Sequence record: NC_055781.1
Direction: 5' to 3' (one strand)
DNA: 64,000 nt
Source: Escherichia phage p000v
Part shown: positions 42,305 through 62,124 of the stretch, one piece after another
Layout: every line of letters begins with the position of its first letter
How positions within the stretch are numbered: the first letter of the stretch is position 1
The notes under the pieces: generated by a model
Seen by the model: only the letters and a program-made list of their open reading frames with translations
The model's database searches: none
Told to the model about the DNA's origin: nothing
Program-made: the position numbers and the translations under genes

Positions 42305-42368
42305 GTTTACATAAGGATGATGGTGTGTTACTATCATCCTATCAAATAAACAACCTCAAGGAAATAAA
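42305..42368 (+). promoter_or_regulatory. Early promoter + stem-loop cassette (PeSL-like) upstream of ipI-like gene
   Basis: GTTTAC (42305-42310), TGTTACTAT -10 inside the inverted repeat AGGATGATGG...CTATCATCCT, CTATCAA leader, SD AAGGAA. Confidence 0.6.
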
Positions 42369-42680
42369 ATGAAAACGTATCAAGAGTTTATCGCAGAAGC
42401 TACTAAAGCCGATAAAAATTTTATTATTAACACCACCGGTCCGTTAGATGATGAATACGCTAATGCTATTATTAAGTCAATTTCTAATCAAGGCGTTGAA
42501 GTAACAAATTTCGAATATAAGAAAAATGATACTTATATGGTAATTAGTATCAAAAAAGGTTCAAAGGCTAAAATTAAATCTGCATTTGGTGTTATGCGAG
42601 TCGACCAAATCGATAACCACGATTTTTCACAAACAGGGGTCAAACGCCAGAATACTATTTCATCTAAAGGCATAAAATAG
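42369..42680 (+). CDS. Internal protein (IPI locus) with capsid targeting sequence
   Basis: 103 aa; N-terminus MKTYQEFIAE|A matches the T4 internal-protein CTS with IxE protease site; located next to 57B as T4 ipI. Confidence 0.7.
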   Translation: MKTYQEFIAEATKADKNFIINTTGPLDDEYANAIIKSISNQGVEVTNFEYKKNDTYMVISIKKGSKAKIKSAFGVMRVDQIDNHDFSQTGVKRQNTISSKGIK

Positions 42681-42746
42681 TTTACATGCTGATAGGACTA
42701 TGTTATAGTAGTCCTATCAAAACAAATGAGTAAATGGAGAAATAAA
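42680..42746 (+). promoter_or_regulatory. Early promoter + stem-loop cassette (PeSL-like)
   Basis: GTTTAC (42680-42685), TGTTATAGT -10 inside the inverted repeat ATAGGACTA...TAGTCCTAT, leader CTATCAAAACAA, SD GGAG. Confidence 0.6.
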
Positions 42747-42932
42747 ATGAAACGCGCTGAACTGATTCGTAATGTTGCTGTAGTAATTGCTTCAATGGCT
42801 TTTAGTTTTTCGATGTTTGTAGGATTCATTTGTGGACTACTGACAACAACTGAAAATTCTATCTCATTGGTAGTAGCATTTCTAATCGGCTTAATCGCTA
42901 TCGTTATGGATAAAATTGCAAAAGGTGAGTAA
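42747..42932 (+). CDS. Small membrane protein (two predicted TM helices)
   Basis: Start at M8 of the track ORF (SD GGAGA 7 nt upstream); 61 aa; hydrophobic segments VAVVIASMAFSFSMFVGFICGLL and ISLVVAFLIGLIAIVM. Confidence 0.55.
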   Translation: MKRAELIRNVAVVIASMAFSFSMFVGFICGLLTTTENSISLVVAFLIGLIAIVMDKIAKGE

Positions 42933-43295
42933 ATGAAATATCATGTATATGCGGATTTTGAAGCAAATCCTTCTAAAGACCCTGATTGTCGTTTGATACG
43001 CAGACCATTTGATTCGGCAGCTCAAGCCTGGGCCTGGATTAAATCTAAATCGCCTGGTTATATGTTCTTTGAAGTAGTCGATGACAATGGTACACTGCAT
43101 CCGGCCCCTACAGAAACTATTAATTTCCTTCTGTTTGCTGGTTATGAATATTATCCTTATGGCGGTATTGACGACTTATACGCTAAAGGAAAAACTGTTG
43201 AGGCTCTTCGCGAAATTTATAAAAACGCTGAAGAAAATTTTGACTGGTATCATATTGTTGATGCTCACACCTTTGAAGTGGTGGAACATTCATGA
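42933..43295 (+). CDS. Hypothetical protein
   Basis: 120 aa ORF; SD GGTGAG; tight packing with neighbours. Confidence 0.55.
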   Translation: MKYHVYADFEANPSKDPDCRLIRRPFDSAAQAWAWIKSKSPGYMFFEVVDDNGTLHPAPTETINFLLFAGYEYYPYGGIDDLYAKGKTVEALREIYKNAEENFDWYHIVDAHTFEVVEHS

Positions 43296-43582
43296 TTCTT
43301 TATGCTAAAGTATCATCCGTCAAGAACGGTTATGAAAGCGACCAACGTGCAGCTAAAGCACTAGTTGATGACTACGGTATTCTGACCCTCTTTGAAGTTG
43401 AAAAGGTTTATATTGACCGTTCATCTTCACAGGTTAAATTACTCTGGGAAGACCGTAAATTTAATAGTGTGAACTTTGATTTCTTTATTGAAACAGAAAA
43501 AGGCCCTCTTGAATATGATATTTTCAAGAATCCTTTAAATCTTGAATGTATTGAGTATACTTACATTAATATGGTACGGTGA
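43292..43582 (+). CDS. Hypothetical protein
   Basis: 96 aa ORF with ATGA overlap. Confidence 0.55.
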   Translation: MILYAKVSSVKNGYESDQRAAKALVDDYGILTLFEVEKVYIDRSSSQVKLLWEDRKFNSVNFDFFIETEKGPLEYDIFKNPLNLECIEYTYINMVR

Positions 43583-43586
43583 GTAA

Positions 43587-44102
43587 ATGAATATTCGTTT
43601 AGGCAGTACAATTACTAAGGGCTACGTAATTGATGTCACTACCTATGAAAATGATGGTGACAACTATAAAACCAAAACATTGTTTGAAGTGGAAGAACAT
43701 GAGCTCCAACAGTTTAAATATCTCTTGAAGAAATTTAAGAGCCGTCATTCTAGCACCAAAGCCGAACGCTATTGCGGTAATACACCATTCAGTGATTGCT
43801 CGCTTATTATCTACGAATATCTGGTTGAAGGACTGTTCTCAGACCAACTCCAACCGGAATTTATTAAAAAGGTCTTTGGTATCGAAGTAGACCTTGGTGA
43901 TAAATCTGAAGAAGACGAAGCCCGCGTATTCGACCTGTTCTTTGTGAAAGGCGATGAGATATCTCAAGGACTTATTGATATTCTTGGCTATGCTTCTGAA
44001 TACTATGATTACGATTTCTTGCGTGTAGTTGAACGTGTCGAATTTGCTTATATTGAAAAAGAAATTGTTTTGCCAACAGTTAAAATGGTTGATTTGCTTT
44101 AA
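43587..44102 (+). CDS. Hypothetical protein
   Basis: 171 aa ORF; SD GGTGAG identical in context to the 42933 start. Confidence 0.55.
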   Translation: MNIRLGSTITKGYVIDVTTYENDGDNYKTKTLFEVEEHELQQFKYLLKKFKSRHSSTKAERYCGNTPFSDCSLIIYEYLVEGLFSDQLQPEFIKKVFGIEVDLGDKSEEDEARVFDLFFVKGDEISQGLIDILGYASEYYDYDFLRVVERVEFAYIEKEIVLPTVKMVDLL

Positions 44103-44181
44103 GAATTATGTGTTATTATTAATTCATACCCTCTATTACCAAAGGTGCTCTAAAGTGCCTTTCATAATAGAAAGTTATTAA

Positions 44182-44253
44182 GGCCCTGTAGCTCAATGGG
44201 AGAGCTGTCAGCTCATAACTGATAGGTAGCTGGATCGAAACCAGCCAGGGCCA
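44182..44253 (+). tRNA. tRNA with anticodon CAU (Met, or Ile if C34 is modified)
   Basis: Cloverleaf folded by hand: acceptor GGCCCTG/CAGGGCC (7 bp), D-stem GCTC/GAGC, anticodon stem GTCAG/CTGAT with loop CTCATAA (anticodon CAT at 44214-44216), 5-nt variable loop, T-stem GCTGG/CCAGC with loop ATCGAAA, discriminator A. No encoded CCA. Confidence 0.8.
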
Positions 44254-44294
44254 TATTTTGGGAACATAAATACTCTTAGAAATAGGAGATATTT

Positions 44295-44963
44295 ATGTTC
44301 CATTACACTTATAAAATAACAAATAAAATTAATAATAAAATCTATATAGGCGCTCATTCTACCGAAAATTTAGATGATGGATATATGGGTTCTGGTAAAT
44401 TATTAAAAAGAGCCCAAGACAAGTATGGTATAGAAAATTTTAATAAAGAAATTTTAGAATTCTTTGACACTAAAGAGCAGATGTTTGAAGCCGAGAAAAA
44501 TATCGTAAACGAAGAATTTTTGAATCGTTCTGACGTATATAATTTAAAACTTGGTGGCGAAGGTGGTTGGGACCATTTAAATACTTACGAATTTAATTAT
44601 AAAAAGAAAGAAGCCTCTATTAAAGGAGCCAAAGCTTTTAAAGAGAGATTTGATTCTGATGAAGTGCTTCAAGAAAAATATCGTAAAATGGGTTCAGAGA
44701 AATTAAAGCATCTGTGGACTTTACCTGAATACAGAGAAAAATTCTCTAGCACTAAGTCGTTTTTAAATAAAAATCATACTTCCGAAACTATTGCTAAAAT
44801 GAAAGATACCCACGCCAGGAACAAACACCAACAAGGCGAGAAAAATTCCCAGTTTGGTACTATGTGGATTCATTCATTAGAAGAAAAGAAATCTAAGAAA
44901 ATTAAGAAAACCGATCCTATTCCGGAAGGTTGGATTAAAGGCTATAAACTAAAATTTAAGTGA
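44295..44963 (+). mobile_element. GIY-YIG homing endonuclease gene, SegB-like (adjacent to tRNA)
   Basis: 222 aa (T4 SegB 221 aa); N-terminal GIY-YIG module YTYKITNKINNKIYIGAHST; basic C-terminal DNA-binding region; located beside the tRNA gene as T4 segB. Confidence 0.75.
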
Positions 44964-44970
44964 GGAAAAT

Positions 44971-45316: not shown

Positions 45317-45484
45317 GAAGCCGGGTCGCTACCGGCAAGACGTCGGACTGATGTTCCCTGGGTAAGGACTGGTCTTAATAAATCTTTACGATTTGTTAAT
45401 ATCCCCTTACATCACAGCAGAAACGGCGCGCAGAATTATCGATTCGAGGAAATATCTTTGCCGTAAGCCGAGTAGCGTTTTTGA

Positions 45485-45576: not shown

Positions 45577-45617
45577 ACAAACACTTACCTAGTAGGTGGA
45601 AACCCCGACAAGGTATA

Positions 45618-45648
45618 AAGCCCCTTCCGAAAGGTTGGGGCTTTTTTG
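45618..45648 (+). terminator. Rho-independent terminator
   Basis: AAGCCCC-TTCCGAAAGGTT-GGGGCTT hairpin followed by TTTTTTG; near-identical copy at about 61579-61608. Confidence 0.7.
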
Positions 45649-45656
45649 TATAAATA
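45649..45656 (+). promoter_or_regulatory. Late promoter (TATAAATA)
   Basis: Plus-strand TATAAATA about 36 nt upstream of ATG 45692, immediately after the terminator. Confidence 0.6.
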
Positions 45657-45691
45657 TAGTAAACAATAAACCTACTTTCTAAGGACCATCG

Positions 45692-46318
45692 ATGTATACT
45701 TTTAATGAATTTTTAGCCGAAACGGAAGTAATCACCGAAGCCGGTGTACGTATGACAAAAGAGAAATGGCAAGCTGCTTACGATGCTATTTCTGGTACAA
45801 AAACTAGTACAGAGTTTTTCAAAAACGTTCAAGCCATGTACGGTATCGACACTTCCAGCCAAAAAGAATATTACAGAGCTTCTAAAGCATTCAAAGATAT
45901 TGTTAGTGGTGGTGTTTCTGCTAAATCTGGTTCGCCTAAAGTAAAACCTGCTCCTACCATTCCTAAACCTGCGACCCCTAAAGCAATAGCAAAACCTGAG
46001 CCTAAGCCTGAAGTAAAAGCAACTCCTAAAGCTCCTGCTCTTAAGTTTGATACTTCTAGCCTGGAAAAAAAATATAGACAACTATCTTCGCTTGTTCGTG
46101 ATATTGAATCCGATACATCTTCACTCGTTCGTGAATTCAATAGTCTTCGTAATGGCCAACATATCAACAACCTTGATACCCCAGACCTTTATCGTCTTTA
46201 TTTGACTATCGAAGGTTTGAAGTATACTCAACCACTTCATGATGAGATTAAAGAAAAACTTCGACAAGCAGGTCGTTTGGCTGCTGACGCTGCTCAGTAT
46301 GCAAAAACTCGTAAGTAA
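45692..46318 (+). CDS. Late-expressed protein with CTS-like N-terminus (candidate capsid internal protein) and Pro/Lys-rich linker
   Basis: 208 aa; N-terminus MYTFNEFLAE|T resembles the internal-protein CTS (LxE site at residues 8-10); central PKVKPAPTIPKPATPKAIAKPEPKPEVKATPKAP; late promoter upstream. Confidence 0.55.
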   Translation: MYTFNEFLAETEVITEAGVRMTKEKWQAAYDAISGTKTSTEFFKNVQAMYGIDTSSQKEYYRASKAFKDIVSGGVSAKSGSPKVKPAPTIPKPATPKAIAKPEPKPEVKATPKAPALKFDTSSLEKKYRQLSSLVRDIESDTSSLVREFNSLRNGQHINNLDTPDLYRLYLTIEGLKYTQPLHDEIKEKLRQAGRLAADAAQYAKTRK

Positions 46319-46320
46319 AG

Positions 46321-46342
46321 AATGGGGACTTCGGTCCCCATT
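46321..46342 (+). terminator. Stem-loop (possible terminator or RNA processing site)
   Basis: AATGGGGA-CTTCGG-TCCCCATT hairpin after the 45692 gene; no strong T-run. Confidence 0.35.
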
Positions 46343-46370
46343 AGGGGGTCTATAACTTACTGAAAAAGTT

Positions 46371-46429
46371 GTTTACTTCTTCCCTAGATGTGTTACTATA
46401 GAACCTATCAACAACATGAGGAAAATGTT
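46371..46429 (+). promoter_or_regulatory. Early promoter + leader cassette (PeSL-like)
   Basis: GTTTAC (46371-46376), TGTTACTAT -10, CTATCAACAA leader, SD GAGGA. Confidence 0.55.
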
Positions 46430-46933
46430 ATGAGTCTTTACACTGAACTGAATAAAAAATCTGAAGAATCTGCTGAAACTATTTTTAAAAACGTGCAAAA
46501 GCGTATTTTAGAAAAGATGTATAACGCTGCATCTAAAGGTGAAAAATCTTGCCAGTTTCCGATGAGGTGTTCTTCTGATTTATGCGCAAATACTATTGAA
46601 TGGTTGGAAAGTGAAGGTCTTACAGTAGAGAAAAACCCGGCGACTTCTATTGACAGTGAATCATATATTAGTATTTCTTGGGATAAATCAAGGGTAGAAG
46701 AGAAAGATGGTGATTGGGTTGTAGATGTTAAAACTTCTGATGGTGGACGTTCTGTTGAAGTTTCAGCTGTAGTTAAAGGTACCCACGAACAAAGGACTTG
46801 GGGCTGGGGTGGTGAAGAAAAAGAAATTGTTCTTAGTGTGATTGCCAGGTCAACTAGTAATAAAATTGCACAAAGCATCATTGACGCTGCAATTGCTGAA
46901 GCAGAAAAAATTTGCAAAATTAAAAATAAATGA
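46430..46933 (+). CDS. Hypothetical protein
   Basis: Start at M15 of the track ORF (SD GAGGA); 167 aa. Confidence 0.55.
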   Translation: MSLYTELNKKSEESAETIFKNVQKRILEKMYNAASKGEKSCQFPMRCSSDLCANTIEWLESEGLTVEKNPATSIDSESYISISWDKSRVEEKDGDWVVDVKTSDGGRSVEVSAVVKGTHEQRTWGWGGEEKEIVLSVIARSTSNKIAQSIIDAAIAEAEKICKIKNK

Positions 46934-46992
46934 TGTACAATCACCAAGGATGGTGATACTATAGACTTATCAACTACAGAGGAGTAAACAAA

Positions 46993-47157
46993 ATGACTAC
47001 TTTAATTATTTGGTTCGATGAAAATGAAGAAACATACTGTGTGAATATTGGTGAAAGCCCAATGCCTGAATTTGAATCCTCAGATAAAAACTCTGTTGTA
47101 TCTTGGGCTGAAGGTTATAAAGCAGCTAAAGGTGACGTTGAAATAATTTACATCTAA
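46993..47157 (+). CDS. Small hypothetical protein (54 aa), not in ORF track
   Basis: ATG 46993 preceded by the duplicated 45-nt leader with SD GAGGAG; MTTLIIWFDENEETYCVNIG...; stop TAA 47155-47157. Confidence 0.5.
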   Translation: MTTLIIWFDENEETYCVNIGESPMPEFESSDKNSVVSWAEGYKAAKGDVEIIYI

Positions 47158-47203
47158 GTAAGTTTATGTTATAGTAGTTCTATCAAAACAAGAGGAAAAC
47201 AAA
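47147..47203 (+). promoter_or_regulatory. Decayed early promoter cassette (TTTACA-17-TGtTATAGT) + leader
   Basis: TTTACA at 47147-47152, 17-nt spacer, TATAGT preceded by TG; leader CTATCAAAACAAGAGGAAAACAAA-ATG; upstream IR arm missing compared with the full cassettes. Confidence 0.5.
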
Positions 47204-47431
47204 ATGGCTAAAGTTAGTATTGATGTCGTTGATTATGAATACACAGAAGAAGTTATTCGCAACCGTCACCCTGAAGTTCGTATCGATTCAGTACAAGATT
47301 CCAAGTTCTGGACAACTGAGCTTAATCTGAGTGGTCCTTATGAAGCTGTTAAGAAGTTCATGGTTGAAGAATACTGCGAAGGCATGCACCCCGAAGACGC
47401 CAAGTTTTATGTCAATTTGATTAAAAAATAA
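47204..47431 (+). CDS. Hypothetical protein
   Basis: 75 aa ORF with cassette leader and SD GAGGA. Confidence 0.55.
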   Translation: MAKVSIDVVDYEYTEEVIRNRHPEVRIDSVQDSKFWTTELNLSGPYEAVKKFMVEEYCEGMHPEDAKFYVNLIKK

Positions 47432-47432
47432 T

Positions 47433-47501
47433 TTACAAACTCTTGAGAGCAGAGTATAATGCTCTCGTTGGATAATAAACCACCAATTGAAAGGTAATAA
47501 T
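47433..47501 (+). promoter_or_regulatory. Sigma70-type promoter (TTTACA-17-TATAAT) with inverted repeat flanking the -10
   Basis: TTTACA, 17-nt spacer, TATAAT; GAGAGCA...TGCTCTC inverted repeat around the -10; SD GAAAGG before ATG 47502. Confidence 0.55.
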
Positions 47502-48095
47502 ATGAACACACTGAAGAAACTTGTTGAATTCATCCGCACTAAACTGGGTACTGCTATGGCTAAAAATCTGACTGTAGAAGAACAGTATAACGCAGCTGCA
47601 GATAAGTTGATTACCCAAATCAAAGAACTAAAAACGGCTTCTGTTAAATCTATTAACGAAGAAAAACGTATTCGCGAACTTGTTAATGAAAAGAACAAGC
47701 AAGCCGCTTCTAAGGAACGTGAAATTCGTAAGCTCCTGGCTGAAGGACAAGATGTTACCATGCATGCTAAGCTTGGTCTTCTGTATCGTCGAACTGCCGA
47801 ACAACTTAATACAAAAGCTGACGGTTATGCCGCTATGCGAATTGAAATTGCTCGTAAGGTGGTTGAACTTGATGATGCTCGTCAGAACCTGGCAATCAAA
47901 CTCGAATACATTCGTGAAACTCGAGCAGCCAATGCCCTTGGTATCTCTACGGCTGATGATGTGATTGAAATTGCTGCACTGACTAAGGTTGATATCGAAG
48001 ACACTCTGACTCGTGTCGAAACATTCAATGGCACTCCAGCCGGTGTCGAAACCACTTCTGCTGATGTACAAGAATATATTAACTCTTTGAAATAA
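47502..48095 (+). CDS. PspA/IM30-like coiled-coil protein
   Basis: Start at M6 of the track ORF; 197 aa, almost entirely helical with heptad-like charge pattern ([33 protein letters not shown]...[14 protein letters not shown]) resembling phage-shock protein A. Confidence 0.45.
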
Positions 48096-48144: not shown

Positions 48145-48747
48145 ATGCGAAACCAAAATAATGATATTGACTCAATGTTCGAAGAGTTCCGAGATAAGGT
48201 AAATCCACCTACGTCTTTAGTTGATTCATTACGATATGTTGCAACTGGGCGTAAATGGTACTGGTCGTCTTCTTATGAGACCACCGAGAAAACAGCTAGC
48301 CATAGCAGAAAATCTTTATTGGCCCCGGGTATTATGATTCATGATATCGGAGCTATTGCTAAACTAGTTGCAGACCATGATATTAGATTCACTGATTTCG
48401 TTGCTCCTACGTGGTCTGTTTGTTGTTTAAACACTGAATGGGAATATATCAGCGAACGCTCTGAAGATTATTATGGTTTTAGAGATAAGCTTCTGAGGTC
48501 TAATATGTTTTATATCGATACAGAAGTTCTAGTCGATAATAAAAAATATTACTTTACGTTAATCATCGATTCTGAAACTATGTATGAAGGCAAGCCTTTG
48601 CTTAAAAGAGTTGATGCTTTAAGTGCTATTGATGCGCTTTATGAAACTATGGTTGTTAGTCCTAATTTCACTAACAATTTAATCCTTGAGCAATTTATTA
48701 TGGAATGTAGAGAATATGTCAAAGCCAACCCTATACATGCCAAGTAA
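48145..48747 (+). CDS. Hypothetical protein with C-terminal QFIMECR motif
   Basis: Start at M8 of the track ORF (SD AAAGGAG); 200 aa; C-terminus ...LILEQFIMECREYVKANPIHAK shares a motif with 48716, 51356 and 52349. Confidence 0.55.
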   Translation: MRNQNNDIDSMFEEFRDKVNPPTSLVDSLRYVATGRKWYWSSSYETTEKTASHSRKSLLAPGIMIHDIGAIAKLVADHDIRFTDFVAPTWSVCCLNTEWEYISERSEDYYGFRDKLLRSNMFYIDTEVLVDNKKYYFTLIIDSETMYEGKPLLKRVDALSAIDALYETMVVSPNFTNNLILEQFIMECREYVKANPIHAK

Positions 48748-49108
48748 GCCCTGGGCGTATGAATACAAGCGTAAATTAATCCCAAATGAAGTACTATTTG
48801 GCCCTATTTTAGCTTTAGCATTTTTAATCTTTATGATTATAGGAGCTGTTTTAGATTCTAGTGAAGTTATATCGTCTGATGCAGCATTTTCATTAATGTT
48901 CGTCGCACCACTTATTATACCGTTTTTATTAATGCCTATTAACTGGATGGGATATTGGTACCAAGGACGTCATCACAGAGCCCGATTAAGAGAATGGAAA
49001 GTTCAGTGCGCAAAAGCCCAAGCTCAGTATGATGAAGCTGTTAAAAAGTATGAATATGAAGAAGCTATGGAATTCGTTAAGGAAATAAGATGCAAAAGCC
49101 TTAACTGA
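48716..49108 (+). CDS. Membrane protein (two TM helices) with C-terminal EFVKEIRCK tail
   Basis: Start uncertain (ATG 48716 or 48737; track ORF begins with TTG at 48686); TM segments ILALAFLIFMIIGAVL and FSLMFVAPLIIPFLLMPI; helical C-terminal tail. Confidence 0.5.
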   Translation: MSKPTLYMPSKPWAYEYKRKLIPNEVLFGPILALAFLIFMIIGAVLDSSEVISSDAAFSLMFVAPLIIPFLLMPINWMGYWYQGRHHRARLREWKVQCAKAQAQYDEAVKKYEYEEAMEFVKEIRCKSLN

Positions 49109-49206
49109 ATTTATGCTGTTTACGCTTCTCAAATGATTAGTTATAATGAACTCCTAGCTAAACGTGAAAATGAAACAATCGAAAACTTTATTAAGGAATG
49201 TAGAAA

Positions 49207-49512
49207 ATGAGTAAGATTATTGAAATTAAAGTACCAGAGTTTAATGATGCCAAATCCGCTTCAGATGCAATTTATAAACTTCTGAATCAAGCTGAACGTA
49301 TCGAAGAAGAAGCAACAAAGATCGCAGACCAATACGCTGTATCGTTTTCTGTAGGTGATTATGGTAGCGGTCGTACTTATTATCCTAAGGGTGAAATCGT
49401 ATCCCAGTGGATGAAAAATGAAATTGAAAATAATGGTGGCGACGTTAAGCGTGAAGGTAATGGTTACGTTATTACTGAAGGTGCTTGGGTTTCGTCTTCT
49501 GCGTTGTGCTAA
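49207..49512 (+). CDS. Small protein, member A of tandem triplicated family (C-terminal GAWVSSSALC)
   Basis: 101 aa; shares helical N-terminus and C-terminal G-W-V-S/A-S-S-x-x-C motif with 49522 and 49804. Confidence 0.6.
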   Translation: MSKIIEIKVPEFNDAKSASDAIYKLLNQAERIEEEATKIADQYAVSFSVGDYGSGRTYYPKGEIVSQWMKNEIENNGGDVKREGNGYVITEGAWVSSSALC

Positions 49513-49521
49513 GGAATCATT

Positions 49522-49794
49522 ATGTCTAAAGAACAAACCGAACTGGCTGAAGCCGTAGCAAAAATCTATGCAGCTATTGAGGCTGCCAAAGAAATTGCTA
49601 ATAAACAAAACACAACATTCGACTTGTATCCAGCTTATGGCATGGGTGGAACCTATCATTCACCAGGACATCTTAAAGCCGATCTTGAACGTTGTACAAA
49701 AAACGGCTATGCTGAATGGGCTGACGTTTACCAATACGACTACAACTTGAGCCTTGAAGATGGCGGTTGGGTTGCATCTTCTCACACTTGTTAA
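49522..49794 (+). CDS. Small protein, member B of tandem triplicated family (C-terminal GGWVASSHTC)
   Basis: 90 aa; paralogue of 49207 and 49804. Confidence 0.6.
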   Translation: MSKEQTELAEAVAKIYAAIEAAKEIANKQNTTFDLYPAYGMGGTYHSPGHLKADLERCTKNGYAEWADVYQYDYNLSLEDGGWVASSHTC

Positions 49795-49803
49795 GGAAAT
49801 CAT

Positions 49804-50001
49804 ATGTCTCGTGAATTAGATTGTGCTGTACGTACAGCAGTAGCTGCCCTAGAAAACCTGTTCCAGATTGCAACCGAAGAGCGTGAAGAAGTTACATTGT
49901 GGATTGAAGATAACGCAGGTCTGAATCTCCAGGACGCAATCTCGTTATCAAATAATAGTATTACTGTTCAAGGCTGGGTATCATCTAGTTATTCTTGCTA
50001 A
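49804..50001 (+). CDS. Small protein, member C of tandem triplicated family (C-terminal QGWVSSSYSC)
   Basis: 65 aa; paralogue of 49207 and 49522. Confidence 0.6.
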   Translation: MSRELDCAVRTAVAALENLFQIATEEREEVTLWIEDNAGLNLQDAISLSNNSITVQGWVSSSYSC

Positions 50002-50005
50002 AACA

Positions 50006-50063
50006 GTTTACAACAAGATAGGGCTATGTTATAGTAGTCCTATCAAATTAAATGGAGTCTACA
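50006..50063 (+). promoter_or_regulatory. Early promoter + stem-loop cassette (PeSL-like)
   Basis: GTTTAC (50006-50011), TGTTATAGT inside the inverted repeat ATAGGGCTA...TAGTCCTAT, leader CTATCAAATTAAA, SD GGAG. Confidence 0.6.
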
Positions 50064-50303
50064 ATGATTTATTATGAAAGTATCGGAACCGAAGTAGTTG
50101 CTAAAACTATTACTCGTGAAAAGTTTGCAAAGATATTCGATATGCGTTATAAAAAATCTGAACACAAAGGCATCCGATTCGAAGATGCGCACTGTACAAT
50201 TTGCCCTTATAATGAAGACATAAACGGTACAATCGTTCCATTGGTAGAGGCTTCACATGATGACCTCTGGGATGAATATAATATCGCATGTCGCGAAATT
50301 TAA
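50064..50303 (+). CDS. Hypothetical protein
   Basis: Start at M5 of the track ORF (SD GGAG 6 nt upstream); 79 aa. Confidence 0.5.
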   Translation: MIYYESIGTEVVAKTITREKFAKIFDMRYKKSEHKGIRFEDAHCTICPYNEDINGTIVPLVEASHDDLWDEYNIACREI

Positions 50304-50328
50304 GTAATCTAAATTCGAGGAAATTATT

Positions 50329-51285
50329 ATGATGTTAGTTATTGGTTCTCGTGCACTTCACTATCACGGCCTTATTGATTCTAGCGCTATCAAAAATAGT
50401 GATTGGGACTTTATTGCGGACCAAGGTTCTTGGAATGTATTCAAAAATCAAATGATGGGCGTATATGTTCACCAAGATAACCCTGATGTCCAAGTTTTCA
50501 AATGCTTCCATAATGGACGCGAAACTCATTTTGAAGCATACATTGTTCCGGCAATCACTAATGTCCGTGAATTAGTCGGTGAACTCACTCCTGAAGATTT
50601 CACGTCTTCTTATGACCTTTTAAAATACGCCAAGAAAAATTTGACTAAAGACCGTTTGAACGGGTTTTACTGGGCAACTCCTGAGATGTGTCTTGCAATT
50701 AAGATGTCTCATCGTTTCAAGAAAAATAATCCATTCTTTTTAAAGACTATGAACCATATTCAGTATCTTCGTGGTAAAGGTGTTACACTGAACGATGAAC
50801 TTACTGAAATTATGCTGAAACGCCAGAAAGAAACCTTGAATTATGCTCACCCGGTTCTTGACACTTCTAAAAGCGCATTCTTTAAAGATGACATCTACAC
50901 ATACGATCATGATACTATTCACGAAGCCATTGCACTAACAGACCGTCCAGCGTATACATTTTATATGAAAGATGGTTCTGAAGTCATGACCTCACGCGAG
51001 AAGTTCGAATCATTACCGGAAATGGTCAAATTGGCCGGCGTATACGAAGAATCATGTGTACTAGCATTAGAACGTTCTCAGATTCCTAATAACTTTGAAA
51101 TCCATCCACGTGATAGTTTTATGATAGCTCTTGAAAAGGTCTGTACTTCAATCACGTCAGGCTGGTTCCGTGAGTATGCCTGGGAGAACTATGGCAAAGT
51201 AGTAAGTATGTATCAAAGCTTAGGACATGACGATTATGTCAAACGTTTCAAACAAAATTTCCATATGGTAAAACCTTTCAAATAA
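50329..51285 (+). CDS. Hypothetical protein with Pol-beta-type nucleotidyltransferase-like motif
   Basis: 318 aa; N-terminal LVIGSRALHYHGL...NSDWDFIAD (GS...SDxDF pattern similar to the 63423 protein); rest alpha-helical. Confidence 0.4.
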   Translation: MMLVIGSRALHYHGLIDSSAIKNSDWDFIADQGSWNVFKNQMMGVYVHQDNPDVQVFKCFHNGRETHFEAYIVPAITNVRELVGELTPEDFTSSYDLLKYAKKNLTKDRLNGFYWATPEMCLAIKMSHRFKKNNPFFLKTMNHIQYLRGKGVTLNDELTEIMLKRQKETLNYAHPVLDTSKSAFFKDDIYTYDHDTIHEAIALTDRPAYTFYMKDGSEVMTSREKFESLPEMVKLAGVYEESCVLALERSQIPNNFEIHPRDSFMIALEKVCTSITSGWFREYAWENYGKVVSMYQSLGHDDYVKRFKQNFHMVKPFK

Positions 51286-51297
51286 CTTCACAAAACT

Positions 51298-51355
51298 GTT
51301 TACAACAAGATAGGACTATGTTATAGTAGTCCTATTAAAACACGAGGAGAATATT
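51298..51355 (+). promoter_or_regulatory. Early promoter + stem-loop cassette (PeSL-like)
   Basis: GTTTAC (51298-51303), TGTTATAGT inside the inverted repeat ATAGGACTA...TAGTCCTAT, SD GAGGAG. Confidence 0.6.
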
Positions 51356-51661
51356 ATGAAATTAGGCGAAACCAACCGAATTGGTCTTTTAACAATATTT
51401 GCATCACCTTTTTACGCAGCTCTTTCTGTTGCAGTATTACAAAAGGCTTACGATATGGATGGTGTTCCTGGTTGTATATTCTTATCACCATTTTTGTTAT
51501 TCGTTGGAGCACTGCTATTATACGCCACGACTAGTTTCGACCATAATGTCTGGGTTAATTATAAATGTAAATTGTCTGAAGAAGAACACGCAGAAGCTCG
51601 TAAAAAAGCTATTGAATCTACCAATCTAGAAAATTTCATTAAAGAATGTCGAGGAAAATAA
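51356..51661 (+). CDS. Membrane protein with C-terminal ENFIKECR tail
   Basis: 101 aa; two hydrophobic segments (IGLLTIFASPFYAALSVAVL, CIFLSPFLLFVGALLLYA); C-terminus ...NLENFIKECRGK. Confidence 0.55.
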   Translation: MKLGETNRIGLLTIFASPFYAALSVAVLQKAYDMDGVPGCIFLSPFLLFVGALLLYATTSFDHNVWVNYKCKLSEEEHAEARKKAIESTNLENFIKECRGK

Positions 51662-51662
51662 T

Positions 51663-52349
51663 ATGAATAGTTCTAAAGTGTTTAATAGTCAAGCTCGTGC
51701 AGTAGGTGGTTTCGCTGGCCGTATCAGTAATGATAAAATTAAAAATGAGCCTATGTTCTTCAACTGCGACCTGAAGTTTGCTTTTGATAACGGCGGTCCT
51801 ATCACTCGTTCTTTCATCATGAATCTGCCTGATGACTGGAACACTAATGAAGTAGTATTCGATTCACGTGTTCATATGCTTATGCCTGGCTGGTATCCTG
51901 CTATTCCTGGATACCACCATGACGATGTTCCTCGCCCTGATATTCCAGTCGGCCAACACTTTATTACTGCAGGACAACCTGACTATGATAACCCTCGTTA
52001 CCATTCTGAACATATTCTTGGTCTTGTTAACGCTGACGTGTGTCCTACTCATTTTGCAACAGGAACTGCAGAGTTCAGTCAGATTCCTGATGGCGAACTT
52101 ATCTATCGCCAGTGGCACAAAGAAGTCCTCGAAAAAATCGAAAAAGGCGAACTAGAGAAATGGGAAGCTCCAGACCGTACTCTTCTTCAGTTTGATTGGC
52201 AAACATGGCACACTGGTTCTCGTGCAATTAGTAATGGATGGCGTTGGTTCGGGCGTGTATCTCGTAATACAGACCGAGTTAAAAAGATTACCAATGAAAT
52301 TCGTGTCAACGCTCAAGTTTATCTAGAATTCCCTATGGAAGGCTGGTAA
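51663..52349 (+). CDS. Hypothetical protein
   Basis: 228 aa ORF tightly packed after 51356; His/Asp-rich segment (YHHDDVPRPD...HSEH). Confidence 0.5.
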   Translation: MNSSKVFNSQARAVGGFAGRISNDKIKNEPMFFNCDLKFAFDNGGPITRSFIMNLPDDWNTNEVVFDSRVHMLMPGWYPAIPGYHHDDVPRPDIPVGQHFITAGQPDYDNPRYHSEHILGLVNADVCPTHFATGTAEFSQIPDGELIYRQWHKEVLEKIEKGELEKWEAPDRTLLQFDWQTWHTGSRAISNGWRWFGRVSRNTDRVKKITNEIRVNAQVYLEFPMEGW

Positions 52350-53521: not shown

Positions 53522-53555
53522 GTAATAAATACCTCCTATAAACGTGGGAGGTATT

Positions 53556-54044
53556 ATGAATATATTTGAAATGCTTCGTAATGACGAAGGTCTTAGACTG
53601 ACTTTATACAAAGACACCGAAGGCTTTTGGACGATTGGCATAGGCCATTTGGTAACAAAGAACCCGTCTTTAGCCGTAGCTAAAGCTGAACTTGACAGAA
53701 TGATCGGTCGTAAATGCAACGGCACAATTACCCTTGATGAGGCTGAAAAGCTATTTAATGAAGACGTTGATAAAGCCGTTCGTGGAATCTTGGGTAATGC
53801 TAAACTTAAACCAGTGTATGATTCTTTAGACGCGGTTCGTCGATGTGCATTAGTCAATATGGTCTTCCAAATGGGTGTAGCAGGCGTCGCAGGTTTTACT
53901 AATTCTCTTCGTATGCTTCAACAGAAACGTTGGGATGAAGCGGCAGTAAATCTAGCCCAATCTAAATGGTATCGTCAGACACCTAATCGCGCGAAACGCG
54001 TAATCTCAACATTTAAAACAGGAACTTGGAAAGCGTATATATGA
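53556..54044 (+). CDS. e: Endolysin, T4 lysozyme (gene e)
   Basis: Start at M5 of the track ORF (SD GGGAGG); 162 aa; [32 protein letters not shown]... essentially T4 lysozyme with catalytic Glu11/Asp20/Thr26 context. Confidence 0.95.
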
Positions 54045-54323: not shown

Positions 54324-54380
54324 GTTTACTTCCTCCAAGGACTTTGATACTATACATTCATCAACTACTTGGAGGAAATT
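54324..54380 (+). promoter_or_regulatory. Early promoter + stem-loop cassette (PeSL-like) upstream of denV
   Basis: GTTTAC (54324-54329), TGATACTAT -10; inverted repeat TTCCTCCAAG...CTTGGAGGAA pairs the region after -35 with the SD. Confidence 0.6.
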
Positions 54381-54794
54381 ATGACTCGTATCAATTTAAC
54401 ACTTGTTTCTGAACTGACCGACCAACATCTTATGGCTGAGTATCGTGAATTACCACGCGTATTTGGTGCAGTCCGTAAACATGTTCAAAATGGTAAACGT
54501 GTAAAGGATTTTAAAATCTCTCCAACATTTATCTTAGGCACAGGTCACGTAACATTCTTTTACGACAAACTTGAATTTTTACGTTTACGTCAAATCGAGC
54601 TAATCGTGGAATGTTTAAAACGCGGTTTCAAAATCAAGGACACGACAGTCCAGGATATTTCCGACATTCCTGTAGAATTTCGTAATAATTATGTCCCGTC
54701 CGAAGCGTCCATTGCGATAAGTCAAGCACGCTTAGATGAAAAAATTGCTCAACGTCCGACTTGGTACAAATACTATGGTAAATCAATTTACTAA
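54381..54794 (+). CDS. denV: Endonuclease V, pyrimidine dimer DNA glycosylase (DenV)
   Basis: Start at M5 of the track ORF; 137 aa; [34 protein letters not shown]... near-identical in character to T4 endo V. Confidence 0.93.
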
Positions 54795-54806
54795 GGAAAA
54801 ACGAAA

Positions 54807-55061
54807 ATGTATCAAGAATTTACCGCTGAAGCAGATGCCAAAGGCCCAAAGTTTAAAGTTAAAGCTTTCATTGGTGATGCGGAAGACTTTGGCTCATTAA
54901 AATGTAATGGGTATTCTTTCTTAGGTGGCGATGGTAAAGAAATCAACACCTATGCAAAACGTAGTGAAATTGCTTATGTTGTAGCAAGTCCTAAAGTAGA
55001 TGTTGACGATATTGAATACGATTTTAACAACTTCGGAATTATTTCTGGCGGTAAAGCTTAA
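54807..55061 (+). CDS. Hypothetical protein with degenerate CTS-like N-terminus
   Basis: 84 aa; N-terminus MYQEFTAEA resembles MKTYQEFIAEA lacking two residues. Confidence 0.5.
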   Translation: MYQEFTAEADAKGPKFKVKAFIGDAEDFGSLKCNGYSFLGGDGKEINTYAKRSEIAYVVASPKVDVDDIEYDFNNFGIISGGKA

Positions 55062-55065: not shown

Positions 55066-55125
55066 GTTTACGCTTAAGTATTAATATGGTATAATTACTC
55101 TATCAAAACAAACAAGGAAACAAAA
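55066..55125 (+). promoter_or_regulatory. Early promoter + leader cassette (PeSL-like)
   Basis: GTTTAC (55066-55071), TGGTATAAT extended -10, leader CTATCAAAACAAACAAGGAAACAAAA. Confidence 0.6.
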
Positions 55126-55440
55126 ATGAAAACGTATAAAGAATTTATTGCAGAATCCGCCAACCAACGCGTTGAAGGTGGTTATATTTGGATTGAACAA
55201 GTTGAGCCACCGAGCCGCACTTCTACAGGTAAATGGAAAATTACCGTTGATGGTCCTGGTGGTAAACGTAGGACTCTTAAAGAAATTAACGGGTACTATG
55301 AAGAAGCTCTTTCGGATGCAGGAACTTACATGATGCAAATCATGATTAAAAACCCTGAAAACCGTTTTGCAGCTAAAGTCTTCCGCCGCATCGGTAATAA
55401 ACTTTATGATGCATACTCTAAAAACTTCCCTAAAGAATAA
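55126..55440 (+). CDS. Internal protein (IPII-like) with capsid targeting sequence
   Basis: 104 aa; N-terminus MKTYKEFIAE|S; basic; size close to T4 IPII (100 aa). Confidence 0.65.
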   Translation: MKTYKEFIAESANQRVEGGYIWIEQVEPPSRTSTGKWKITVDGPGGKRRTLKEINGYYEEALSDAGTYMMQIMIKNPENRFAAKVFRRIGNKLYDAYSKNFPKE

Positions 55441-55465
55441 CATAAATTAAAACAATAGGAACAAA

Positions 55466-56044
55466 ATGAAAACTTATAAAGAATTTATCGCCGAGGCCTT
55501 TGCAGGAAAAGCTCAAGGCATTAATAAGGACGAGTGGAATTATCGTGGCGGAAACGGCTTTGACCCTAAAACTGCTCCACTTGAACGATATCTAGCCACA
55601 AAAGCTTCTGATTTTAAAGCATTCGCTTGGGAAGGACTTCGCTGGCGTAACGATCTAAATATTGAAGTTGACGGACTCAAATTTGCTCATATTGAAGATG
55701 TTGTTGCTAGTAACTTAGATGCAGCTTTTGTTAAAGCCGACAGCGACCTTCGTCGCTGGAATTTAAAACTGTTCTCTAAACAAAAAGGCCCGAAGTTTGT
55801 GCCTAAAGCAGGTAAATGGGTTATTGATAATAAATTGGCTAAAGCTGTCAACTACGCTGGGCTTGAATTTGCCAAGCATAAATCATCATGGAAAGGTCTT
55901 GATGCAATGACTTTCCGTAAAGAATTTGCCGATGTTATGGCTAAAGGCGGCTTTAAGGCAGAAATAGATACCTCTAAAGGTACGTTTAAAGACGCTAATG
56001 TTCAGTACGCTTACGCCGTTGCTAATGCAGCCCGTGGTAATTAA
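55466..56044 (+). CDS. Internal protein (IPIII-like) with capsid targeting sequence
   Basis: 192 aa; N-terminus MKTYKEFIAE|A; size close to T4 IPIII (194 aa). Confidence 0.65.
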   Translation: MKTYKEFIAEAFAGKAQGINKDEWNYRGGNGFDPKTAPLERYLATKASDFKAFAWEGLRWRNDLNIEVDGLKFAHIEDVVASNLDAAFVKADSDLRRWNLKLFSKQKGPKFVPKAGKWVIDNKLAKAVNYAGLEFAKHKSSWKGLDAMTFRKEFADVMAKGGFKAEIDTSKGTFKDANVQYAYAVANAARGN

Positions 56045-56222
56045 TAAGGCCTAAGTATAGGCCTATTTACATTTAAATAAAATGGGAACAACCTGGACCT
56101 CATGATTCTATGAGGGATTCCCGCCAACCTGTAATAAGGTCGAGCCCAAGTGCGGTAATGGGTAAATACAGAAATGGACAATTCATGCGCCACGGAATGG
56201 CCCAAACCTTAAGAGAAATAAT

Positions 56223-58135: not shown

Positions 58136-58192
58136 GTTTACTTCTCCTCTAGTTGTGTTACTATAGACCTGTCAACTAGAGGAGAAATCAAA
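58136..58192 (+). promoter_or_regulatory. Early promoter + stem-loop cassette (PeSL-like) upstream of regB-like gene
   Basis: GTTTAC (58136-58141), TGTTACTAT -10 within the inverted repeat CTCTAGTTG...CAACTAGAG, SD GAGGAG. Confidence 0.6.
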
Positions 58193-58651
58193 ATGACTAT
58201 CAATTCGGAAGTTTTTATCCGTCGCAATAAACTCCGTCGAATCTTTGAAACGGAGTTTCGTCAAATCAACGCCAGTATAAAAGATGCTGCAAAGTCTCTT
58301 GGACTACCAGGCTTTCATATAAAGTATTCTCAACATCTCTTAGATCGTGCCATCCAGAGAGAAATAGATGAGAATTACGTTTTTGAATTATTTCATAAAG
58401 TAAAAAATCATGTTAAAGAAGTTGCAGAATTTTTATCAATGCCGGCACGTCCAGATGTTGATGAAGATTTTGTCGAAGGTGTCGAATATCGCCCAGGCCG
58501 TTTAGAAATAACTGACGGAAATCTTTGGTTAGGACTTACAGTCTGTCGCGAAAATCCAGCATTCAAAATGAAGACTCTTCAATGCAGAATGGCTATTATT
58601 AACAGTAAACGACTACCAGGAAAAGCTTCTAAAGCAGTGATTAAAATCTAG
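58193..58651 (+). CDS. regB: RegB-like endoribonuclease
   Basis: 152 aa (T4 RegB 153 aa); MTINSEVFIRRNKLRR... matches my recollection of the RegB N-terminus; location between denV and tk. Confidence 0.55.
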   Translation: MTINSEVFIRRNKLRRIFETEFRQINASIKDAAKSLGLPGFHIKYSQHLLDRAIQREIDENYVFELFHKVKNHVKEVAEFLSMPARPDVDEDFVEGVEYRPGRLEITDGNLWLGLTVCRENPAFKMKTLQCRMAIINSKRLPGKASKAVIKI

Positions 58652-58659
58652 AGGTAAAC

Positions 58660-60215: not shown

Positions 60216-60243
60216 GTCAAACAAAAATTCTTACAGGTGCTAA

Positions 60244-60426
60244 ATGAAATTGACTAAAGAAGAGAAAACTAAACTGTTCGAACTTATCCATGACCTATTG
60301 GATGAGCAAGCAGCCACCAATGCGTACGATGAATATGCTCCTTTAACAGATGAAGAATATCAAGCATTGTTGGAATCATTTGACAGGAAAGAACAAGAAC
60401 TCATTGACTACGTGAATTCACTATAA
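60244..60426 (+). CDS. Hypothetical acidic protein
   Basis: 60 aa ORF just upstream of tk. Confidence 0.5.
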   Translation: MKLTKEEKTKLFELIHDLLDEQAATNAYDEYAPLTDEEYQALLESFDRKEQELIDYVNSL

Positions 60427-60435
60427 GGGACTCTT

Positions 60436-61017: not shown

Positions 61018-61044
61018 ATACTAATATCTAACCAAGAGGTATAT

Positions 61045-61257
61045 ATGCAGCAATTAAACGAAAGACAACTTCGTAATCTTACTGTAACCCAATTGGATGA
61101 AATCCGAAGAGAATTAGGACATTCTATTTCTCATTTAAACGAGGATATCCGTCAAACTGGTTCTAAAGCTGATTATACACGCAAGCGCAAGCTGGAAAAA
61201 TACCTCACAGATGTTAAGGCCGTCCAAAGGCGAAAAATAAATACTGGCCAAAATTAA
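61045..61257 (+). CDS. Hypothetical protein
   Basis: 70 aa basic helical ORF downstream of tk. Confidence 0.5.
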
Positions 61258-61269
61258 CAGGAGGCCTAT

Positions 61270-61572
61270 ATGGCCTTAAGAGCGATAGCTGTCATGGCGA
61301 TGCTGGGTTTTTTTGCAGCAACAACTCCTATCGTTGGTACTGCACGTATTGACCCATATTTTGATAACTTTATGGAATCAGGGATTAAAAACGTATATAC
61401 TTTGTTCGAAATTCAAAATGTTGAGAATTCTGAAAAATTCTATAAGTATATGGCAAAGCATTACAAAAATAGCCCCTGTGATGATGCATTTGAATGTCAT
61501 GAACAAGGCATAAAAACTGCCAGACAATTTGCTGAGTTCATGAAAATAAAATTAGAGCCTACATCTATCTAA
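61270..61572 (+). CDS. rI: RI-like lysis inhibition regulator (antiholin), membrane-anchored/periplasmic
   Basis: 100 aa; N-terminal signal-anchor MALRAIAVMAMLGFFAAT; resembles T4 RI (97 aa) in size, N-terminus and position next to tk. Confidence 0.6.
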   Translation: MALRAIAVMAMLGFFAATTPIVGTARIDPYFDNFMESGIKNVYTLFEIQNVENSEKFYKYMAKHYKNSPCDDAFECHEQGIKTARQFAEFMKIKLEPTSI

Positions 61573-61578
61573 TTTACT

Positions 61579-61608
61579 AGCCCCTTCCTTATGGTTGGGG
61601 CTTTTTTG
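61579..61608 (+). terminator. Rho-independent terminator (copy of the 45618 hairpin)
   Basis: AGCCCC-TTCCTTATGGTT-GGGGCT followed by TTTTTTG; same stem sequence as at 45618. Confidence 0.7.
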
Positions 61609-61617
61609 TATCTATCA

Positions 61618-61673
61618 GTTTACTTCTCCGCAGGTTGTGTTATAGTAGTCTTTACTTACTAGAGGAGAACGTT
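61618..61673 (+). promoter_or_regulatory. Early promoter + stem-loop cassette (PeSL-like)
   Basis: GTTTAC (61618-61623), TGTTATAGT -10, inverted repeat TTCTCC...GGAGAA pairing with the SD. Confidence 0.6.
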
Positions 61674-61853
61674 ATGTCACGTAAAGAAAAAATTTCTAAG
61701 TTAATGTTTTTGATTGAAGAGTACGCTAATGCCGTATCTGATTGGGAGAATGCCCACGGGTGCGAAGATGGCGATATTGATATCAATAAGGCAATGAAAA
61801 AGATGGCTGACGCCCACACCGAATTGCAAATGTATGTTAACGAGATTATGTGA
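61674..61853 (+). CDS. Hypothetical protein
   Basis: Start at M14 of the track ORF (SD GAGGAG); 59 aa. Confidence 0.5.
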   Translation: MSRKEKISKLMFLIEEYANAVSDWENAHGCEDGDIDINKAMKKMADAHTELQMYVNEIM

Positions 61854-61860
61854 GGACATT

Positions 61861-62067
61861 ATGCTTTACGATTATACTGGAAAATCTGAAGACGGTGTAC
61901 TTGAACTTTTACCTGAAAGCGCTGAAGATGATGATACGGTGGTGATGTTTTGTAAAAATGGTCCTGGGGATAAGGGATGGATTTATCTTCGTCAAGAAAA
62001 TGATCTAATTGTTTTGGACCCAAAACAAGTTGAAGAACTTTATCAACATTTAAAACATAATCGGTAG
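61861..62067 (+). CDS. Hypothetical protein
   Basis: Start at M10 of the track ORF (SD GAGGA); 68 aa. Confidence 0.5.
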   Translation: MLYDYTGKSEDGVLELLPESAEDDDTVVMFCKNGPGDKGWIYLRQENDLIVLDPKQVEELYQHLKHNR

Positions 62068-62124
62068 TTTACATCTTGGTAGGATTATGTTATAGTAGTC
62101 CTACCAAAACGAACGGAGAACAAA
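62067..62124 (+). promoter_or_regulatory. Early promoter + stem-loop cassette (PeSL-like)
   Basis: GTTTAC (about 62067-62072), TGTTATAGT inside the inverted repeat TGGTAGGA...TCCTACCA, SD GGAGAA. Confidence 0.6.

Follow-up and report, generated by a model that had tools for sequence, protein, structure and literature searches.

Repeated cassettes of the T-even promoter-early stem-loop type in the accessory region of Escherichia phage p000v, a Mosigvirus

A stretch of 64,000 nucleotides of Escherichia phage p000v (NC_055781.1), called here the window, contains fourteen copies of a cassette in which a promoter-like sequence is fused to a leader, a Shine-Dalgarno (SD) sequence and a start codon, and which in half of the copies includes a clear stem-loop. 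The cassettes are promoter-early stem-loop (PeSL) elements of the T-even type, occurring in Mosigvirus, a genus outside the papers that dealt with PeSLs. Judged by their sequence, they are probably sigma-70-dependent early promoters of this T4-like phage and, as such, mostly a known kind of feature; the finding is real and well supported, and largely already known. One element perhaps beyond the accessible literature may be a conserved anti-SD sequence embedded in the promoters of regB and denV.

Results

The cassette motif and its layout

All fourteen sites of the original prediction were found, each on the + strand, with the first base of the (G/A)T(T/G)TAC element at positions 9200, 42305, 42680, 46371, 46933, 47146, 47431, 50006, 51298, 54324, 55066, 58136, 61618 and 62067. 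Two of these starts are shifted relative to that prediction, which had placed them at 46945 (here 46933) and 47433 (here 47431). The pattern GTTTAC-N14-18-TGTTAYWRT gave eight matches, all of them on the + strand, where shuffles predict 0.02; looser patterns brought in 9200 and 54324, and a one-mismatch scan brought in 47146 and 55066. In a weight-matrix scan of both strands, the fourteen copies scored 21–50 bits and everything else 12 bits at most. This separation is partly circular, as the matrix was trained on the copies themselves, but the lack of minus-strand matches is still informative. A repeat search blind to the motif placed the cassettes first among the direct repeats, as families D1 and D2. 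Thirteen of the copies are located within 42.3–62.1 kb, from ipI to the mobD region, and the weight-matrix scan placed no cassette on either strand of the late-gene block at about 10–38 kb.

When the copies are aligned on the −10 element, they display an A-rich tract (12 of 14), the (G/A)T(T/G)TAC element, a spacer of 16–17 nt, and TG or TA (13 of 14) directly before TAnnnT, followed by the leader, with (C)TATCAA around the predicted start, and then by the SD and ATG. GTTTAC is exact in eleven copies and carries one or two changes in the other three. Every copy is intergenic and has an SD and a downstream start codon at its 3′ end, and in those checked the upstream stop codon either lies 0–13 nt before the −35 element or overlaps it. 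In every case, the ATG opens an open reading frame (ORF) equal in length to an annotated gene of the relatives.

The early-promoter reading is based on three matches. GTTTAC, its spacing, the extended −10 and the A-rich tract agree with the T4-type early consensus, whose logo (Nolan et al. 2006, PMC1524935) has GTTTAC at −36 to −31, a 17±1 spacing, TAnnnT, a GT/TG-rich extended −10, A-rich positions at −40 to −44 and C at −3 to −1. The cassettes of the window are also laid out like the sequence before T4 regB, whose promoter has been described, from experiments, as typical of the early class; transcripts of the denV promoter have also been mapped in T4. Finally, the early promoters predicted in RB69, which share the logo, match the cassettes by spacing, with no alignment involved, from Pe:57689 to Pe:77187 and at Pe:109605 (PMC1524935). 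Thus, Pe:57689 and Pe:58138 are 449 nt apart, as are 62067 and 61618; Pe:64193 and Pe:64934 are 741 nt apart (742 for 55066 and 54324), and Pe:67959 and Pe:69254 are 1295 nt apart (1292 for 51298 and 50006). The RB69 study considered neither stem-loops nor recombination. Promoter features are absent from both T4 GenBank records, NC_000866 and AF158101.

Three copies with a variant −35 element had been taken as decayed, and as a sign of recent turnover. This is ruled out by the relatives: ATGTAC at 46933 and ATTTAC at 47146 and 47431 are identical in all the close relatives examined, and are therefore old, stable variants.

Concerning the genomic context, the window belongs to the RB69/JS09/mar005P1 group of Mosigvirus and is 95–96% identical to its closest genomes. 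Megablast with positions 42000–62200 returned 1068 phage records, headed by vB_EQ1, mar005P1, JS09, ESh15 and others, with 95–96% identity and 87–93% coverage. Following the annotation of JS09 and mar007P3, the gene order on the + strand is: gene 1, 57A, 57B, an ipI-type internal protein, tRNA.4, tRNA.3, tRNA.2, a tRNA, homologues of e.6, e.5 and e.4, RB69-type ORFs, nudE, e, denV, internal proteins, vs.8 to vs.3, regB, vs.1, vs, tk.4 to tk, rI and mobD.x. This region is the counterpart of the classical T4 hyperplastic region at 57–75 kb, read in the early direction. The late genes 24, 23 and 22 are on the minus strand, at 7.9–13 kb.

Stem-loops in the cassettes

The folding of each copy was compared with that of 200 dinucleotide shuffles. 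Seven copies are clearly structured (42305, 42680, 50006, 51298, 54324, 58136 and 62067), with none of their shuffles as stable and z values of −3.7 to −5.9. Two others are marginal: 47431, with 3/200 shuffles as stable, and 46933, with 6/200. The claim that most copies carry an inverted repeat was thus overstated, as even with the marginal ones they amount to nine of the fourteen, and five have no stem. Two geometries occur. In class I (42305, 42680, 47431, 50006, 51298 and 62067), a hairpin of 8–13 bp brackets the −10 element, the 5′ arm lying within the spacer and the 3′ arm extending from just past the −10 to about +4. In class II (54324, 58136 and, weakly, 61618), the spacer is paired with the SD region.

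Evidence of selection for pairing was sought in 182 distinct cassette sequences from the window, nine close relatives, T4 and sixteen IMG/VR loci around regB. IMG/VR supplied only these sixteen, and the close relatives were therefore drawn from GenBank phages. The sequences amount to 130 families, i.e., distinct spacer/downstream combinations, which cannot be counted as independent because they include orthologues. For each spacer, the longest Watson-Crick helix with the 13 nt that follow the −10 of the same cassette averaged 4.99 bp, compared to 3.83 bp with permuted partners (sd of the mean 0.084), and helices of at least 8 bp were found in 15% of the families versus 1.4% of the controls. 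Between the spacer and the SD region, the mean helix was 4.97 bp versus 4.52 bp permuted, with 15% versus 3.1% reaching 8 bp. Column covariation was dropped because a MAFFT alignment of the regB, denV and mobD.2a cassettes left the arms out of register, and because the register of class I differs between families; searches for helices in each sequence, with partner permutation, were used instead.

The paired arms are often unrelated in sequence from one cassette or lineage to another: GGATGAT/ATCATCC, ATAGGACT/AGTCCTAT, GAGAGC/GCTCTC, GTTGACAAGATT/AATCTTGTCAAC, GATGAGGTA/TACCTCATC and GGGCC/GGCCC. Compensatory changes were observed, and in the family of 62067 one pair of the stem is G-C, G.U or A-U depending on the relative. 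The interior pairs of class I that are not Watson-Crick comprise six G.T and no A.C, a bias that, small as the sample is, would be expected if the stems form in sense-strand RNA, but not if they form in duplex DNA or in antisense RNA.

In both classes, RNA begun at the predicted start of the cassette, about 7 nt after the −10, is without the 5′ arm, which is located between −35 and −10. It is a direct consequence of the sequence that only read-through RNA, begun at some upstream promoter, is able to fold.

Pairing of the promoter spacer with the SD region of regB and denV

The cassette at 54324–54383 precedes denV (54381–54794), and its spacer sequence TTCCTCCAAG forms a helix of 10 bp with CTTGGAGGAA, the SD region (−17.6 kcal/mol, z −5.9). 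In the cassette at 58136–58195, before regB (58193–58651), a helix of 14 bp joins the spacer sequence TTCTCCTCTAGTTG to CAACTAGAGGAGAA, a stretch that contains the SD (−21.4 kcal/mol, z −5.2). Both helices include GGAG and have their 5′ arm between −35 and −10. A third, weak case is the cassette at 61618–61676, before mobD.2a (61674–61853), with 6 bp here, 8 bp in relatives and a z of +0.2. So, of the two sites for which SD pairing had been proposed, 54324 is upheld and 61618 is weak in this phage, and the strongest copy, 58136, had not been named.

The arrangement is conserved, with compensatory changes, in several lineages of Tevenvirinae. The regB helix measures 14 bp in this phage, 15 bp in both T4 and L012 and 12 bp in L015 (L012 and L015 being two of the other regB lineages); the denV helix measures 10 bp in this phage as well as in T4, 14 bp in L013 and 9 bp in L014. 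The core complementary to the SD is the sole constant part, while the remainder changes on both sides of the helix, the arms outside the SD being CTAGTTG/CAACTAG, CTTGACTG/CAGTTAAG, CTTTATG/CATAAAG and TGTAAGT/ACTTACA.

At 54324 and 58136 the SD is paired and the 5′ arm is upstream of the internal start, which is the arrangement of an SD-sequestering hairpin. For the T4 genes e, soc, 49 and I-TevI, experiments have shown that the long read-through RNA folds so that the SD is hidden, and that RNA begun inside the structure is translatable (PMC3014915). The class II cassettes of denV and regB have exactly that layout. They differ in timing: in the T4 genes, the internal promoter is late and translation is delayed, whereas here the promoter would be early and translation would be confined to the early period. 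In read-through RNA, the SD of a class II gene would be paired and the gene poorly translated; the transcript of its own early promoter would start downstream of the spacer arm, leaving the SD free, and the gene would be expressed mainly from it. It is quite possible, if short of probable, that the spacer of the early promoter doubles in this way as an anti-SD, and that the origin of the transcript decides the translation of regB and denV, own RNA being open and read-through RNA closed. No description of such an early-promoter variant of SD sequestration for regB or denV was found in the accessible literature, a search that did not cover the older T4 literature.

Class I and stemless cassettes

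Among the class I cassettes, the one at 42305–42371 has a hairpin of 12 bp, AGGATGATGGTG/TACTATCATCCT, over the −10 (−15.4 kcal/mol, z −4.3, 0/200 shuffles) and precedes an ipI-like internal protein gene (42369–42680); junctions are found at 42362 and 42391 in nine relatives. The next, at 42680–42749, precedes tRNA.4 (42747–42932) and has a 12 bp hairpin, TGATAGGACTAT/GTAGTCCTATCA, bracketing the −10 (z −5.1). Hairpins of 11 bp are present at 50006–50066, with one G.U pair, before the ORF 50064–50303 (z −3.7, 0/200), and at 51298–51358, before the ORF 51356–51661 (z −4.5). That of 62067–62127, before a 36-aa ORF (62125–62235), has 13 bp (z −5.0). The variant cassette at 47431–47504, before e.6 (47502–48095), reads ATTTAC...TATAAT with no TG, and carries the hairpin GAGAGC/GCTCTC around its −10 (z −2.5, 3/200).

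Class I hairpins stand within about 10–30 nt of the upstream stop codon. With a helix that surrounds the −10 and stops near +1, read-through RNA would carry an intercistronic hairpin just after that codon. The likeliest role of class I, and a plausible one, would be to attenuate read-through or to shield the 3′ end of the upstream RNA; the stems would be the same read-through-only device as in class II, put to a different purpose. As intrinsic terminators they were rejected, since they have no U-tract. A canonical terminator upstream of the promoter is found only at cassette 61618.

Among the other copies, the variant cassette at 46933–46995, with ATGTAC as its −35 and before the ORF 46993–47157, contains a small hairpin, TCACCA/TGGTGA, inside the spacer (z −2.1). 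The cassette at 46371–46432, before a 167-aa ORF (46430–46933), has no significant stem (z −0.05). Stemless copies are the ATTTAC variant at 47146–47206, before the frd.3 homologue 47204–47431 (z +1.1), whose 3′ side is mosaic among relatives; the cassette TGGTATAAT at 55066–55128, before an Ip10-like internal protein gene (55126–55440; z −0.1); and the isolated copy at 9200–9262 (41.6 bits, fold z −0.03). The latter precedes an 89-aa ORF (9260–9529), a homologue of RB69ORF188c with a weak DUF4859 match, which is placed between the late genes 24 and 23, themselves encoded by the other strand. Early transcription from the 9200 cassette would run antisense, toward the end of gene 23.

Gene turnover at cassettes and other repeats

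Turnover was studied with BLAST chains over positions 38–64 kb against fourteen Mosigvirus relatives, which yielded 38 distinct indel or replacement events with 47 junction positions. Cassette zones, defined as ATG−85 to ATG+30 and making up 5.9% of the region, hold 13 of the 47 junction positions (p = 2e-6 versus a uniform distribution). A cassette is touched by 15 of the 38 events, and a cassette or either of two other repeats, the terminator repeat D7 and the repeat D4 (see below), by 17.

Footprints of overlapping homology were found at five junctions, four at cassettes and one at the terminator repeat, with overlaps of 7–70 nt. At 51298, an additional cassette with a 201-nt ORF is present in JS09, mar007P3, MRostami and p000y, with the junction inside GTTTACAA, and the relative L026 has at this place a 662-nt ORF that looks endonuclease-like by eye. 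ESh15 and TH12 have an additional internal protein gene between cassettes, with a 30-nt overlap; in ESh15, cassette 42680 sits before this second gene and tRNA.4 has a different cassette. L026 carries a 263-nt insert flanked by 70-nt duplicates of cassette 42680. The slot 45652–46364, with a terminator on its left (45619–45651) and cassette 46371 on its right, has at least four alleles, of 711, 563, 509 and 22 nt, and cassette 58136 is the right border of the vs.3 replacements.

Identity between copies can extend beyond the promoter. Positions 9220–9266 and 46953–46999, in cassettes 37 kb apart, form the repeat D3, 47 nt that are 100% identical and cover leader, SD and first codons; JS09 has this repeat unchanged, and ESh15 has it with one mismatch. 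Between neighbouring cassettes, the longest exact matches are of 20–27 nt.

Two repeats other than the cassettes also take part. D4 consists of an SD plus ATGAAAAC(G/T)TATAAAGAATTTAT, the latter encoding a capsid-targeting start of the MKTYKEFIAE type; its copies, at 42353–42397, 54785–54829, 55110–55154 and 55450–55494, mark four genes of internal-protein type, two of which lack a promoter of their own. The last copy, on the + strand and without a promoter, comprises the SD and the first codons, MKTYKEFIAE (the capsid-targeting sequence), of the gene 55466–56044. D4 serves as a recombination junction, as positions 55155–55445 are missing through it from three relatives (L003, L004 and L005). 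D7 is an intrinsic terminator (AGCCCCTTCC..GGGGCTTTTTTGTAT) with copies at 2505–2537, 45619–45651 and 61579–61611, the second and third being 91% identical. These two, both on the + strand, coincide exactly with indel junctions, and therefore terminators are also exchange points: 45619–45651 is the left border of the variable slot mentioned above, and 61579–61611, which lies 7 nt upstream of cassette 61618 and forms with it a composite terminator-promoter, is duplicated in L026 on both sides of a 591-nt module.

It seems reasonable to interpret these observations as follows. Being fused to leader, SD and start codon, a cassette would make each small early gene or group of genes a self-contained expression module. 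At the same time, 40–70 nt of cassette sequence every 0.2–4 kb, in one orientation, would provide patches of homology, and the repeated terminator and the repeated 5′ end of the internal protein genes would act likewise. Recombination at such patches would add, delete or swap the ORFs in between.

Three other sites of change were recorded. In the e.3 homologue, a deletion at 49106–49147 leaves 11 nt, versus 250 nt in seven relatives, and truncates the gene; it ends exactly at a promoter-like GTTTACG-N17-TATAAT, which in relatives is inside the e.3 coding sequence and which matches by spacing the low-scoring RB69 prediction Pe:70143. At 56047–56070, the hairpin AGGCCTAAGTATAGGCCT is directly followed by ATTTAC with no −10, and the place is the right-hand junction of several replacements (56053–56124); it may be a “half” cassette. 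The relative L030 (phage BEU50) is without 3.7 kb (48444–52159, from e.5 to ORF132c), with 8 nt of overlap at the junction and a cassette at neither end; the gap is due either to a large natural deletion or, the record being unverified, to misassembly.

Neighbouring features

The lysozyme gene e (53556–54044) has its SD covered by the hairpin AATACCTCCTAT/GTGGGAGGTATT at 53528–53555, so that the classical structure of translational control in T4 is kept. The only tRNA of the window is tRNA-Met (44182–44253), which was also the sole match with Rfam at gathering thresholds. It is followed by an ORF for a GIY-YIG (Seg-type) homing endonuclease at 44295–44963 (PF01541, E = 1.3e-6). In close relatives, tRNA-Met and tRNA-Arg(tct) are found within 82 bp, whereas here the place takes 698 bp, and p000y has a cluster of ten tRNAs; this phage therefore appears to be without tRNA-Arg. 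A second free-standing homing endonuclease is probably encoded between genes 4 and 2 by a 216-aa ORF (38659–39309), with weak matches to SegE GIY-YIG and NUMOD3, in a place that measures about 30 bp in seven relatives.

Discussion

PeSLs were defined in phages RB49 and phi1 as a strong promoter plus a stem-loop of variable position plus SD and ATG, intergenic and dense in hyperplastic regions (PMC2839356); they flank differential ORFs or adjoin indels (PMC2839356, PMC4122927). In RB49/phi1, the stem is most often found between −35 and −10 or overlapping the −10, and one G+C-rich stem-loop of RB49 lowered lacZ expression like rrnB T1; mini-circles were also demonstrated (PMC2839356). The definition was extended to PST/T4 with the consensus TTTACW-N17-TAYWAT (PMC4122927), and the authors saw in the T-even elements of the internal protein locus (Repoila et al. 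1994) analogues whose stems are weaker and A/T-richer.

The cassettes of the window resemble the RB49/phi1 elements (Arbiol et al. 2010) in their AT-rich tract, −35 and −10, stem in the spacer or over the −10, SD and ATG, and also in being intergenic, crowded in hyperplastic regions and flanking ORFs that vary between close relatives. They differ in having GTTTAC and A/T-richer, unrelated stems, with none in five copies, instead of the near-perfect TTGACA/TATAAT and the GGGG...CCCC stems of RB49. Terminator activity and mini-circles have been demonstrated for RB49/phi1 only. The T-even PeSLs of PST/T4 and the elements of the internal protein locus (Comeau et al. 2014, PMC4122927) are closer, with the same consensus, region of the genome and association with gene replacement. 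They also include “half” elements, of which 56047–56070 is a possible case here. In PST, according to a figure legend, the stems are just upstream of the promoter, while here most 5′ arms are inside the spacer and 61618 alone has an upstream stem of the terminator type.

The PeSL label given in the original prediction thus fits in kind (layout, stem geometry, T-even consensus and location). Other parts of it did not stand, as stems are not universal and there is no recent decay. Likewise, the proposal of modular shuffling holds insofar as cassette-bounded gain, loss and swap, with overlapping-homology junctions, occur among the fourteen relatives; the cassettes are neither the sole junctions nor statistically privileged ones.

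Several results weigh against reading the cassettes as PeSLs that direct turnover. Five of the fourteen (9200, 46371, 47146, 55066 and 61618) have no structure beyond that of their shuffles, and the excess of complementarity was estimated over families that share orthologues. The sequence after the class I hairpins is A-rich, with no U-tract, and a terminator scan of the + strand calls none of them; hence, the “promoter-terminator” function of PeSLs is not evident from their sequence. Junctions were found at 8 of 13 gene starts bearing a cassette and at 16 of 46 other gene starts, an excess that is not significant (Fisher p = 0.08). In 21 of the 38 events no repeat element is involved; these include homing-endonuclease insertions (the two ORFs of GIY-YIG type at 38659–39309 and 44295–44963) and internal deletions, with five indels in the tk.4-tk.2 operon and the deletion in e.3 among them. 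Finally, the conserved flanks around diverged ORFs could be due in part to purifying selection on promoters, and not to preferential crossover.

These points lead to considering whether the cassettes could be ordinary early promoters only, alike because strong T4-type promoters are constrained, with incidental inverted repeats and no special role in turnover. The stemless copies, the p value of 0.08 and the fact that RB69 early promoters were predicted at matching spacing without reference to stems agree with it. We nevertheless find this explanation unlikely, since the complementarity is about 14 sd above the partner-permuted controls, unrelated arms occupy the same place across cassettes and lineages, the 47-nt exact identity of D3 reaches through leader, SD and first codons, and there are junctions with overlapping cassette homology. 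The stems could also be terminators or attenuators insulating each module, as in the published model of PeSLs as composite promoter-terminators. The effect of the RB49 stem-loop on lacZ (PMC2839356), the canonical terminator 7 nt before cassette 61618 and the closeness of class I hairpins to the upstream stop codon speak for this. It is rather doubtful for the window, because the class I tails are of the CAAAACAA type, with no U-run and uncalled as terminators of the + strand, and because the class II loops, of 20–25 nt with the SD included, point to control of translation rather than to termination.

It is also conceivable, and we consider it very unlikely, that the inverted repeats act in DNA, either extruded as cruciforms on which a junction-resolving nuclease acts or bound by a dimeric protein, for instance a factor that shuts off early promoters, and are recombination hot spots or operators. 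Palindromes centred on or near the −10 and the clustering of junctions at cassettes would fit such a role. Moreover, the mechanism by which T4 early promoters are shut off is stated to be incompletely understood (PMC3014915), and Arbiol et al. speculated on a recombination protein that binds stem-loops (PMC2839356). On the other hand, the arms share no recognition motif, their register versus the −10 varies (pair sums of 46 versus 51 for 42305 and 42680), the 6:0 ratio of G.T to A.C favours single-stranded sense RNA, and in class II the arms are separated by about 25 nt and follow the position of the SD. The interpretation that we prefer remains that of early promoters of the T-even PeSL type, with stems that would form in read-through RNA.

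With these qualifications, the window offers a well-documented RB69/Mosigvirus example of accessory genes organized as self-expressing modules and exchanged at short regulatory repeats, which is of use for annotating T4-like phage genomes and for engineering therapeutic phages. The promoter-embedded anti-SD would be a simple, testable way to limit translation to the early transcripts of the gene itself; if true, the synthesis of an RNase and of a repair enzyme would be confined to the first minutes of infection.

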